From the NCBI GenBank assembly GCA_018985225.1, contig JADGIF010000508.1, forward strand, positions 1-7,452: a DNA stretch of 7,452 nucleotides. The letters are read 5' to 3'. How positions within the stretch are numbered: the stretch's first letter is position 1; each line of letters starts with the position of its first letter. Both the position numbers and the translations under genes were made by a program. This document shows positions 2,945 through 7,452 of the stretch, piece after piece. Source of the DNA: Amoeboradix gromovi X-113 (taxonomy: Eukaryota; Fungi; Sanchytriomycota). The notes beneath the pieces are model-generated. The model saw only the letters and a program-made list of their open reading frames with translations. It had not been told where the DNA came from and did not search any database.

Positions 2945-3454
2945 ATTAAATTCTAATTTAGAAAACAATTAATTTATTATCCTTTTTTCCTATTCCTGTT
3001 TTCCCCAATGAACAATGTATGTTTTATTTGCACCAGTGGGCTTAGCTTCAACTTATTTTCCTGATATTTTCCAATTCTTTTTGAAATAATTTCAATCGCA
3101 ACATCTCTGTATTTGTTAGTCTCGGATACACCTTTATCAGAATGTTCTGTGATATATTCATTATCCAGCTTTGAGTGGAATACTAAATCAATGTAAATAT
3201 GATATTTGGGGAAGTTATCACTCACATTTGAAATTTTAATATCGTGTTACCTTTTTACTCCAATTCTCAATCATTCATGTGCTTTGATCCACTAGTCGGT
3301 TGGACAAAAATGTATTTAAAAATCTGTTTACCACAATTCTGTTTTATGTCATCATCAGAAATTCTAAAATCTCCAATCGAGTTCAAAGAAATTATCTCAG
3401 ATAGAAACAAGATGACACCAGATAACACACCTTCACCAACAATAGAGTTTAAGA

Positions 3455-4112
3455 ACTGTCTTGTAGCAGGAGTAGCTGTACGTATCAGGCTGGTCCACAT
3501 CAAATCTTCTCATGCACACCCCTTCTCTTGTCATGCAACGCATGAAGTAGCGTATAATCTTGTTTCGATCGGGAGCCTTGAACTGCTGCGGAAGCGCCTT
3601 GAGATCAGCCTTGAAGGCCTTGCCGACCCGCGCAGAGATGTTCAGGACCACATGATTCTTGCAGGCAACCAAATACTCTTTGGTTGCTTCATTCAGCAGC
3701 TGGTTGACATACTCATAGTCAAATATCTGCATGTCACCAGGTCACAGGCTCTCATATTGCTCATAGGCTCTCCAAACACTTGAACAGCTGCAGGGTGGAC
3801 AGAACCAGCAGCCAATATGAAGGCTCTGTAGAAATATGTTTGATCCAGCTTAGGGATCACTGCTTCTGTTGCTAAGAGATGTAGCGTGTGTAAATTGACC
3901 AGCCTGATGCCTTCAACGGCTGCTCGTGTAACACCTTGAACACAGCGTTCAATCTCTTGACACACAGCAGGTGATTTACAGAAGGTGTTCAGCTTCATCT
4001 TGGTGACTGACAAGGTGACATCAGCTAGCCTGAGCAGCTTGTCTGCCCTGTCCGTTCGCTTGCTACCCACAACAACATCATCCTGTATGTCTTCGTCAAC
4101 ATCATCCTCCAT
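3455..4112 (-). pseudogene. Fanzor1-like (eukaryotic TnpB/OMEGA nuclease) N-terminal remnant; RuvC and zinc finger absent
   Basis: LSVTKMKLNTFCK...EIERCVQGVTRAAVEGIRLVNLHTLHLL...IPKLDQTYFYRAF, then after a frameshift at ~3775 VWRAYEQYESL*PGDMQIFDY...EYLVACKNHVVLNISARV. This matches the Fanzor1 N-terminal pattern as I recall it (VVKxxLNxFC...ANLHxxR...PxLDQxFFY...NHxxxNF). There is an in-frame TGA at 3742-3744 and probably a second frameshift at ~3515. GC is 50-55% in sampled lines (3601-3660: 33/60; 3901-3960: 30/60) versus 19/60 at 3361-3420. Confidence 0.72.
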
Positions 4113-4295: not shown

Positions 4296-5114
4296 TGAAA
4301 TCTTTATGTTACAGATATTAATTAATCTAACAATTTCATCTCTCTATACTTTTTGAGCTGCACATAATGCATCCTTTAAACATGGGTGATCAAAAAACAA
4401 GCAACAATTAAATTGACTTTTCAATTGACAGAATGACACACTTTTCATATCTCCTTCTCTATAGTATAACTTTAATATTTACATGTTCTATCATCTTTTA
4501 TTTCCTTATCTTGGTAATTTAATGAATTATGAACAAATAAATAAAAGTAAAGAAATAGAAAAAAATGATCTGGTAGTTTTGCGCAACAACCTTCATTGTT
4601 AGCACTGCTTTTACATGGTAATAGTGATGTTGTATCTGAAGCCATTATTACATGAGTTAATATCTGTCCTACAACTCTGAAAAAGACTGAATGAATGAAA
4701 GAATAAGAAAATAACAGTATAGAATTTATATTTTTCAAAATTCTATATAAAACATCTAGCGCTAGGACTAATTTTTACAAAGTGTGCGTTAATTTCTTTG
4801 AAGTCAACTCATTCCCTAATGTTAAATAAGATTCTTCAAATAATTAATTAAATAATTAGCTTGTATTCATTGGTCGAATTTGAAACAACTCCCGGTATAG
4901 TTTTTGCAGAGTGTTGTTAGGAAAAAATATCAGTTGACTTTATCTCGCCACCTGCTTCCTACCCCTGGTCTATTTTTACAGAGTATATCCCATTTGTTTA
5001 ACGCTCGAGTGACCAATCTCAGAATGATAACAGAATAGCTTGATTCAATGAATTATGAGAATAAGAAGCTTACAATTGTGCAGGTTTAGTCTCCAATTGA
5101 AAAGCATAACTTGC

Positions 5115-5156
5115 TGATTGGGTTAACTTCATTGGGTTAGTTTGATTGGCTGCAAC
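5115..5156. promoter_or_regulatory. Three reverse CCAAT boxes at 14-bp spacing upstream of the F-box gene
   Basis: ATTGG occurs at 5117, 5131 and 5145 (units TGATTGGGTTAACT / TCATTGGGTTAGTT / TGATTGGCTGCAAC), 70-100 bp upstream of the ATG at 5216. A forward CCAAT lies at ~5014. Confidence 0.5.
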
Positions 5157-5215
5157 TCAATAATTTCTATTTAAGGTTGCAAAATGTAAGATAGAGAATC
5201 CTATCTATTTCGTTT

Positions 5216-5965
5216 ATGACTACAAGATTAATTCAAAGGATAGACAATTTGCAGCTAGAAATTAGAGGTCTTCAAATTAAAATTCAAAAACGGGACAAAA
5301 CTCCTCCTGCGCTACCAATCGATGTAGTGATATTTATAATTCAGCACTTGAACTTTGAAGATTTGATGGAATTCCGTCTTGTTAACAAAGAATTCAACTT
5401 AGCTTCAAATTACATCTTAAAAAAAAGAAGTTTGGAACAACTAAGCGAGACTAAAAGAGCATTACATGAGGCTGAATGCAATTATGCTATTGTTAAGCAG
5501 AGCATAATGCCGGACATTCACAATAACCTTGAATTCTTGAAAGATCAGGAAAACATTCAAAGAGTGTATAGTCAATTTGGGCAACACAAAGATAACATAT
5601 CAAACCTAATAGTGCAATGTTTAGCAGAATTATACGACACAAACTTACCTAGAACACATTTTAAAAACAGAAAATTTAAAAAATGGTTTTTCAATCTTGA
5701 GCTATCTGTTGAAGAAATAACAGACACTCAGGTCAGTAGAGCAGAAGACATCATTCGTGATAACGATATAACTTACGAACTAGCTAGAAGTAAAGGGCAG
5801 TTTGCATTCAGATTACTGATTATAGTGGCTGCTTTGTTAGAGTTGCAAAAGTTGAGGACTACAATTTCAGTACTTGAATTTGGCATACAAGACTTGCTCG
5901 ACGAGCACCAATTTCTTGAAAAGGTCATTGTAGTCTCCAAGTACAATCTAAACAATTTGATTTAA
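5216..5965 (+). CDS. F-box protein (N-terminal coiled coil, F-box, helical C-terminal domain resembling the dynein stalk/MTBD)
   Basis: Uninterrupted 249-aa ORF from ATG to TAA, with AATAAA at 5964-5969. The F-box consensus LPIDVVIFIIQHLNFEDLMEFRLVNKEFNLAS spans aa 33-64 (~5312-5407). The C-terminal assignment is inference (see findings). Confidence 0.88.
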   Translation: MTTRLIQRIDNLQLEIRGLQIKIQKRDKTPPALPIDVVIFIIQHLNFEDLMEFRLVNKEFNLASNYILKKRSLEQLSETKRALHEAECNYAIVKQSIMPDIHNNLEFLKDQENIQRVYSQFGQHKDNISNLIVQCLAELYDTNLPRTHFKNRKFKKWFFNLELSVEEITDTQVSRAEDIIRDNDITYELARSKGQFAFRLLIIVAALLELQKLRTTISVLEFGIQDLLDEHQFLEKVIVVSKYNLNNLI

Positions 5966-6112
5966 TAAAAGACTTTGAACTAATTAAACTTCTGTTTTGA
6001 ATTTTGCACTGAATTCAGTTTCATGAAAGTTTAATATTTCAGAAAGCCAAAATTGTAGCACAAGGCTTTAGGATTTCCATAAAACGGCTTGTTACGAAGT
6101 ATAAATCCAACG

Positions 6113-6991
6113 TGTAACACAGATGACGCCAGAGCAACTTTACGTTTTTCCAATATATTAAAATCTGATAATGTGCGACATAAAATTGCTACATCCCCAC
6201 GAACTATGACAGAAGAAATGAATCGAATTGAGTACCTGACCAAAATTAGAACCATTGTCATGGGCCCATTGTATGATATTACAGCTGAGATCCCCAAGAC
6301 TGGCACCGCAAAACTATTTGAAAGTGTAATATTTATGAATGATGCATTTTTCTGTGCAAATGATATATTGGAGCTCGAGTTCCAAAGATCATTACAGCGC
6401 TAGCATTTCTGGAGGGTTAGATTACATATACAGAGGTATAGTGACCATATATGATATTTGGGTTACACTGGACGTTGATGGAAGACATATGAGTCTAAGA
6501 TCCTTTGATAATTTCTAGTGATCCTGTCTCTAGAATTAGAGGACAGCAGCAATTACCAATGCAAGTGAGCTTTGTTTGGAATGGGCTTTTTCAATGAAAG
6601 CAGAGCAATTTATGAAAGGATTAAAATTTAGGAGAAGCGATAACCAATACACCAGTGAAAAAGAGGCAGGAGAATGCTCTGGGTCAGAGTGCCAGACTTT
6701 GTGCATGGATTATATTCAAATGAATGAGTCTAAAATCGTTTTATTTCCGAGGTAAATGTTGCTTACACAATGAAGGAACACCAATGGATAAAAACTGCCA
6801 AAACCTTCACCACACGTATACAGCAGAAGCAAGACTTCCAAGCTGGAGAGAACACAACTCTTCTTTCGAGAAATAAAGCTTCAGGATTTCAGGGTCAGCC
6901 TAATCTTGACGGAAATAGAGGGCGTGAAAGATGTGTAAAATCTGATTGTGAAGAAAGCTTTCTATCCCATTTTGATCTCCCTATCAAGTGA
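6113..6991 (+). pseudogene. Glycosyltransferase family 69 (CAP59/CMT1-like mannosyltransferase) pseudogene, 5'-truncated
   Basis: Motifs appear in order across frameshifts (~6398, ~6515, ~6590, ~6751): RIEYLTKIRTIVMGPL, VIFMNDAFFCANDILEL, SGGLDY, YDIWVTLDVDG, LPMQVSFVWNG, LKFRR, GECSGSECQTLCMDY and KIVLFPR-VNVAY. These match the CAP59_mtransfer signatures (FxND..C..D.LEL, YDxWV.RD..G, V.SCWNG, GEC..SEC, P.V..AY). Confidence 0.88.
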
Positions 6992-7219
6992 AGCGCTTTA
7001 TTCAGAATGAAAAAGTTTTTATTAGTTGATAAATAATAAAAATAAAACTTGATTTATTTTAGGCAATTCCAGTTGTTCGCTAGTCTCCTGAACTTCAATT
7101 TGTTCACGATATGAACCAAAATGTACAACTTGCTTAAAAAGGATTCTAAATCATTCATGTGCTCGATAAGTTTGCCCCAGATACCATATACCTAAACCGA
7201 AATACAGTCGAAGGAAATC

Positions 7220-7386
7220 CATATGAGACATCAAATATAAAAACTGGACTAACTTTCTGTAACAACTTGGAACATTATTTCAGCTTTATTAATTTTATGG
7301 ATTTAAGAGGCGAGTGGACATTCAGCTAGTTGCGGAATTGACGAGTATAAAAGGAAAATAAATATTCTGTACAGCTATTCTCTTAC
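7220..7386. repeat. Right arm of the long inverted repeat (partner 1-166); may continue to 7452
   Basis: Reverse complement of 1-166. Positions 7387-7452 cannot be compared because their partner would lie before base 1. Confidence 0.97.
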
Positions 7387-7452
7387 TCTTTCATCCAATC
7401 TTTATTTCAAATAAAATATCACTATAACACTTCAAAGAAATAGATAAGAGTA

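Follow-up and report, generated by a model that had tools for sequence, protein, structure and literature searches.

F-box proteins with a dynein-derived stalk tip in zoosporic fungi: candidate SCF adaptors for microtubules

Introduction

Why would a small F-box protein carry what looks like the microtubule-gripping foot of a dynein? F-boxes bind Skp1 and recruit substrates. The question is raised by a gene at 5216..5965 on the forward strand of a 7,452-nucleotide stretch of Amoeboradix gromovi DNA, which was analysed over its whole length and is called the window below. A first-pass annotation, made from the letters alone, had described an F-box followed by the CC1-MTBD-CC2 layout of the dynein stalk and had proposed that the protein either targets an SCF ligase to microtubules or has been repurposed. 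Here the origin of the protein, its family and its surroundings are described, and the possible functions are weighed.

Results

An intact gene for an F-box protein with a stalk-like head

The gene is intact and encodes 249 aa in a single frame that needs no intron; the product consists of a heptad helix, an F-box and a dynein-derived stalk tip. One contig of a sequencing run, which may be the source of the DNA, spans it with zero differences, and an identical protein is already on record in a eukaryotic protein set. The window protein is referred to as P0001 and its nearest relatives, which share a long branch of their own with it, as P0002 and P0003. P0002 is a metagenomic sequence with 52% identity to the window protein over 247 aa, gap-free. 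A genetic code in which TAA and TAG are read as Gln was considered and dropped, as all 17 Gln codons are CAA or CAG and the stop coincides with the end of P0002.

All parts of the protein lie on the forward strand. At its N-terminus, aa 3-24 (5222..5287) form a heptad helix (L5, I9, L12, I16, L19, I23) that was absent from the parts list of the first-pass annotation. It is common to P0002 and was not seen in other relatives in the family alignment. This leucine-zipper-like helix ahead of the F-box is a possible dimerisation or partner-binding element. The F-box itself (aa 33-63, 5312..5404, with L33, P34, D36 and R54) was recognised by Pfam PF00646 with 23.7 bits, where 20.5 is the cut-off (E 4.4e-5), as had been claimed, and it adopts a three-helix fold in the model (helices 35-42, 47-53 and 58 onward). 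Besides the F-box, Pfam returned only the related F-box-like model for the window protein. Weak profile matches were obtained to the F-boxes of FBXW7, Skp2-like, cyclin F, FBXL5 and FBXL2, and in the ESM Atlas just one F-box cluster came up, which has no name (0.92-0.93, recognition scores low).

The outgoing stalk helix, CC1 (aa 64-99, 5405..5512), was placed by model and alignment and ends at the conserved Pro99. It is followed by a helical head that resembles the dynein MTBD (aa 99-210, 5510..5845), as judged from the model, structure superposition and a profile score. Its helices, named H1 to H6 after the alignment to dynein, comprise residues 111-119, 127-140, 146-150 (a short H3), 152-159, 170-182 and 187-193 in the model. 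The return helix, CC2 (aa 211-248, 5846..5959, from model and alignment), lacks the proline of dynein CC2 and is followed by the stop codon. Pro99 and the head of the first-pass segmentation were retained, and the borders of the coiled coils were moved: the model merges CC1 with the third F-box helix into one unbroken helix, aa 58-109, and its return helix covers aa 195-248. No motor is present, the 249 aa being closed by a stop codon and the flanks containing no dynein frames.

The head descends from a dynein stalk

Distant homology to dynein had been suspected, and the searches agree with this. The window protein alone matched no PDB sequence and no Pfam MT family in single-sequence searches, and a profile of P0001, P0002 and P0003 only found no dynein either. 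The profile of the 69-member family alignment, however, found dyneins and nothing else at E<=0.001 (best about 1e-17): each of its 44 PDB matches is a dynein heavy chain or a stalk construct. One of them is labelled as a radial-spoke protein, yet it is 4583 aa long and has DNAH10 sequence in the aligned stretch. The best four matches (3.8e-18 to 3.6e-17) were bovine DNAH10, human DNAH10, this 4583-aa chain and a 4625-aa chain from Chlamydomonas (8glv_Cn). The next match was at 6e-11, and cytoplasmic dynein followed at 1.6e-6 or weaker. A 39-row profile gave an agreeing PDB result. Because of its length and its ranking alongside DNAH10, we read 8glv_Cn as DHC1, the I1 alpha chain. DNAH10 and Chlamydomonas DHC1 belong to the inner-arm I1/f alpha class, class 5 (PMC5100056, accessible text).

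Single relatives matched the same Chlamydomonas chain unaided (3.2e-6 and 3.5e-8; 7.8e-5 for a viral copy described below), and Pfam MT (PF12777) was matched by only 4 of the 69 members, the best at 3.3e-7. The dynein-profile check that had been proposed is therefore positive for the relatives, which match both dyneins and Pfam MT, and negative for the window protein itself, which matches neither. The four motif pairings that had been made by eye fall in the same columns in the profile alignments to 8glv_Cn and bovine DNAH10. On a profile of 65 relatives from which the window's branch was left out, residues 99-210 of the window protein scored 56.3 bits. The reversed sequence reached 0.3 bits, and the highest score among the 1954 shuffles reported (2000 were made) was 9.0 bits. 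The test is not fully independent, since many of the 65 relatives were first collected with the window protein. The window protein is thus joined to the family through its head and not through the F-box alone.

The deep-alignment model of the window protein (pLDDT 92.8, pTM 0.78) gave four Foldseek matches at E<=0.001, all dynein stalks, and a model made from just the window protein and P0002 (pLDDT 63) gave six, all dyneins. The proposed CC1-MTBD-CC2 layout is thereby recovered as a stalk-tip fold that superposes on solved MTBDs: the microtubule-bound mouse MTBD 6rzb_C fits the model with a target-normalised TM of 0.72 and an rmsd of 3.4. In a comparison with 48,161 chains the top four were dynein stalks or MTBDs (VIA Z 12.0-10.8), and the MTBD 6l4p_B matched the head alone (Z 11.7, rmsd 2.8, 112 residues aligned, model 100-215). 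The best non-dynein match was a coiled coil with Z 10.2, and the tool places all these values, those of the dyneins included, in the ambiguous range for helical proteins. Most of the weight of the dynein assignment is carried by the sequence evidence rather than by the structures. Taken together, it is almost certain that the F-box of this protein has been joined to a stalk tip derived from a dynein of the inner-arm I1/f alpha class (DNAH10).

Three further chains from microtubule cryo-EM structures, 9fqr_Xl (Z 9.6 and 8.4), 9ya2_L (8.6) and 9e5c_2e (7.6), also matched the head region. Their matching residue numbers are unlike those of a dynein heavy-chain stalk, and they may represent other motor-less MTBD-like folds.

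A family of zoosporic fungi

An exhaustive phmmer search with the window protein returned 38 proteins at E<=0.001 and a search with one typical member 48; an alignment search returned 5, and a word-index search with the window protein found one relative, P0002. Eighty proteins were collected, 69 of which make up the family alignment, fragments and some near-duplicates having been left out. The 65 relatives outside the window's branch are called typical members. Members are 208-478 aa long (the word-index searches were length-limited). The PF00646 F-box was found in 53 of the 69, and the other 16, some of which are truncated models, had no match at E<=0.01. The distance from the F-box Arg to the CC1 Pro is 45 residues in 68 of the 69, and the one that differs is consistent with a truncated model.

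Of the 48 proteins found with the typical member, 38 bear the name or code of an organism, and the other 10 are unnamed environmental records. We take all 38 to be chytrids, judging from the genera (four chytrid-side names were checked). The named set also includes Gonapodya (Monoblepharomycota), Sorochytrium (Blastocladiomycota) and Globomyces (Rhizophydiales). All relatives with a name are zoosporic fungi, from three phyla, and no named match from non-flagellated fungi or from outside the fungi occurred among the matches of the length-limited, word-based searches. Restriction to flagellated lineages, which had been put forward as a check, thus holds for the matches found. Two quick trees, made without bootstrap or outgroup, recovered groups that correspond to Chytridiales, Spizellomycetales and Batrachochytrium, which suggests vertical descent; in them the window protein, P0002 and P0003 formed a long branch of unsure position.

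In databases the members are labelled 'hypothetical', 'F-box domain-containing' or 'Dynein heavy chain 10'. Four of the 48 proteins are automatically named 'Dynein heavy chain 10, axonemal', which is wrong because they are far too small.

A copy in a giant-virus bin

With the window protein as query, scans of viral and metagenome contigs gave no related locus. When a 16-row alignment was used on metagenome contigs instead, 47 candidate stretches yielded 4 loci. Three of these translate in one frame, and one (L004) is spread over three frames, as introns would give. One of the three, L003, lies on a gene-dense contig of 25% GC that IMG/VR places in a giant-virus bin, and it holds a full-length family member at L003:4968-5681 (= G001:C18, near 24500-25215); its viral status rests on binning and gene content. 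The bin (G001) comprises 358 kb in 21 contigs with one family copy, and its genes for the major capsid protein and family B polymerase are on contigs other than the carrier. Genes on the carrier contig include NADAR, a D12 methylase, an N-myristoyltransferase, DUF5759, MSV199/T5orf172, a deubiquitinase (Pfam UCH) and a phosphatase.

In a quick unrooted tree, from which 12 near-duplicate rows were left out and to which the proteins of three loci were added, the viral protein grouped with Globomyces and four unnamed records (SH-aLRT 96). From this grouping we infer that the viral copy may have been captured from a Rhizophydiales host. Foldseek gave no match at E<=0.001 for the viral models, and a Skp1 search in the 358 kb of the bin gave none.

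The gripping face is largely kept in the family and eroded in the window copy

Dynein contacts the microtubule via H1, H3 and H6 (PMC6629372 and PMC4987762, accessible text). Among the 65 typical members the H1 Glu is retained in 62, the prolines of the PP motif between H1 and H2 in 55 and 60, the Trp that opens H3 in all 65, and the basic pair of H3 in 65 and 61; Arg or Lys is present in H6 in 62, and the Pro at the CC1 end of the head, which is Pro99 in the window copy, in 57. Two features are lost throughout. In H1, DHC1 and DNAH10 have two basic residues, K in SKDH/DKSD and R in IRS, and both positions are non-basic in 65/65; a proline in the CC2 stretch occurs in 1/65. These H1 columns presumably correspond to K3298/K3299 and R3306 of mouse dynein. 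K3298 and K3299 in H1 are reported tubulin contacts (PMC4987762 and PMC6629372, accessible text). Other residues are near-invariant in the family and absent from the aligned dyneins: a His after the CC1 Pro (62/65), a Trp before the PP motif (58/65) and a Trp in H4 (65/65). The sole large insertion is in the H2-H3 linker, which has 11-104 aa in members outside the window copy. Axonemal dyneins carry a flap at this position (PMC6629372, accessible text).

The losses that the first-pass annotation had read from the window copy proved genuine: the PP motif reads KD (aa 125-126), and both the H3 Trp and the CC2 proline are missing. In addition, its H2-H3 linker is 6 residues long (at least 11 in the others) and its H3 has 5 residues. 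Pro99, Cys135, Tyr187 and Arg191 are retained. The head has a charge of -3 against a family median of +2, which is within the family range of -6 to +7, and R146, its H3 basic residue, is Thr in both nearest relatives. As P0002 has the same losses at 52% identity and with no gaps, the changes in the window's branch are old and have been retained. Judged from these residues, the window copy probably binds more weakly or differently than its relatives, or has changed its target.

Surroundings of the gene

The window ends in an inverted repeat with 164-bp arms that are 96% alike (3-166 and 7220-7384; repeat copies 3-166 and 7220-7452) and that extends beyond both window ends. Arms of this kind could in principle be those of a TIR DNA transposon with the gene as its cargo. 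The gene has a read depth of 23.7 and the repeat a summed contig depth of about 1e5, in a comparison that covers 4700-7452 in one run and in which the summed depth is no copy number. Because of this depth and of the 25 contigs that diverge at its inner edge, the repeat is probably an abundant dispersed repeat rather than the two ends of one element.

Upstream on the forward strand, a DUF7869 frame (1552-2598, Pfam E 7.3e-10) has a stop at 2353-2355, after which it continues in frame; we take it to be probably a decayed transposase-like gene. Directly 3' of the F-box gene, homology to CAP59-type mannosyltransferases is spread in model order (67-139, 143-175 and 206-242) over three forward frames at 6089-6731, and on its sequence this stretch is a frameshifted pseudogene. 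On the reverse strand, two overlapping frames at 3433-4112 lie in a GC-rich island (about 45-48% versus 30-35%). They had no database match; to our eye they resemble the N-terminus of Fanzor1 proteins. No Rfam or tRNA matches were obtained in the window.

Discussion

A dynein foot on an F-box

The fusion, its distribution over zoosporic fungi of three phyla, the fixed spacing between F-box and head and the erosion of the window head are direct observations. The architecture can be compared with several known systems. With the stalk and MTBD of I1/f alpha dynein (PF12777), the best sequence match of the family, it shares the order CC1, Pro, six-helix head and CC2. That dynein, however, has a tail, a linker and an AAA+ ring in about 4,500 aa, all of which the F-box family lacks, and of the stalk only about 35-40 residues per strand are left, attached to the F-box. 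The CC2 proline and H1 basic residues have gone family-wide, the PP motif and H3 Trp in the window copy. With the SCF adaptors (FBXW, FBXL and FBXO; PF00646) the family shares an N-terminal F-box followed by a presumed substrate module, which is here a dynein stalk tip instead of WD40 or LRR repeats. To our knowledge, a dynein stalk tip matches no other F-box substrate module. By sequence, the family is not a dynein heavy chain; it would act as an F-box adaptor whose substrate module is new.

The class-10 dynein heavy chains of Chytridiomycota and Neocallimastigomycota are likewise a chytrid-specific dynein derivative (PMC5100056, accessible text). Class 10, which is not DNAH10, comprises giant AAA+ proteins whose tail is of the WD40 type; the F-box family has small members, and the solved structures nearest to it are of class 5. 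The term 'F-box' is absent from the main text of that paper and from the accessible main text of a survey of the fungal flagellum (PMC13358043). Family accessions and terms were not found in the supplements of PMC13358043 and PMC12659703, which held one unrelated F-box row, and the literature search, outside which most subscription papers lie, turned up no published description of an F-box joined to a dynein stalk tip.

What the protein may do

We prefer, with a probability of about 0.45, to read the protein as an SCF adaptor that would have its docking site on microtubules or tubulin, the retracted axoneme of the zoospore being the most plausible place, and with the window copy probably binding more weakly or differently than its relatives. 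The F-box is very probably able to bind Skp1, as predicted from established F-box biology. The conserved H1-H3-H6 face suggests that the ligand of typical members is still tubulin, for which we consider the chances slightly better than even. Because no motor shifts the register of the coiled coil, such a head would act as a static clamp. Since an unbroken helix of fixed length joins the F-box to the head, the arm is predicted to be rigid; it would keep the ligase a constant way off the lattice, from where tubulin or axonemal proteins attached to the lattice could be ubiquitinated.

In chytrids the flagellum is withdrawn into the cell; breakdown of its axoneme takes about 2 h, and the centrioles survive it (PMC12659703, accessible text). 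The degradation is at least partly proteasomal, by a mechanism that is incompletely understood (Venard 2020, as cited in the accessible text of PMC11772885, PMC8887899 and PMC12659703). How an internalised axoneme is destroyed while centrioles are spared is described as unresolved, and no ligase is named for the process in the accessible text of PMC11772885 and PMC12659703. We assign the family only tentatively to axoneme breakdown at encystment, in preference to ciliogenesis or mitosis. That the window copy itself still binds microtubules seems rather doubtful.

The same residues can be read otherwise. The dynein-derived head of an SCF adaptor could have been repurposed for a substrate other than tubulin, such as a regulator of the cell cycle or a protein of the axoneme or centriole; this may have happened family-wide or, at the least, in the branch of the window. 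The family-wide loss of both H1 basic residues and the CC2 proline, and the gain of near-invariant residues that the aligned dyneins lack, would fit such a change, as would the remodelling of H1, PP and H3 in the window's branch, where the gene has stayed intact and gap-free at 52% identity to P0002. On the other hand, the surface residues that typical members conserve are on the tubulin-contact helices of dynein, and the named relatives are all flagellated fungi. We regard a repurposed head as a serious, if not the favoured, possibility for the family; for the window copy, the repurposing that the first-pass annotation had offered as an alternative is about as live as microtubule targeting. 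It is also conceivable that the protein competes at the dynein site or stabilises microtubules, its F-box serving its own turnover or no longer binding Skp1. From structure, a motor-less MTBD would occupy the dynein site, and both the modest F-box score of the window protein and the 16 members without a PF00646 match could be taken in this sense. The F-box core is nevertheless strongly conserved in typical members (Pro 58/65, Glu 59/65, Arg 64/65), and the near-constant distance between F-box and head fits a geometric link between a ligase and its bound target. This makes a mere competitor or stabiliser improbable.

For the window copy alone, the 164-bp inverted repeats on either side, the interrupted DUF7869 frame nearby and the frameshifted CAP59-like stretch, together with the long branch, might indicate a decaying and functionless passenger in mobile or repeat-rich DNA. 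Its frame is intact while its neighbours are broken, however, and its structure is modelled with confidence. The gap-free P0002 shares its losses, so the change is old and kept, and the depth and contig data of the repeat speak for a dispersed repeat instead of element ends. A passenger is accordingly very unlikely.

Implications

A wider scenario would combine the microtubule-docking adaptor with the viral copy. Early fungi would have turned the foot of I1 alpha dynein into an SCF adaptor that reads the lattice and supplies the factor still missing from the account of how the proteasome destroys the retracted axoneme; a giant virus of chytrids would have acquired this adaptor as a means of manipulating the microtubules or flagella of its host; and the branch of the window would show decay or retargeting where the flagellum changed. 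As a whole we consider this scenario speculative and on balance unlikely to hold in every part. The viral copy suggests a function worth capturing. For annotation, small F-box proteins named as DNAH10 can inflate dynein counts in fungi. For the biology of the chytrids, the family gives one specific candidate gene for axoneme destruction in tractable species. If the docking adaptor is real, the track-binding foot of a motor would have been reused as the address label of a ubiquitin ligase.
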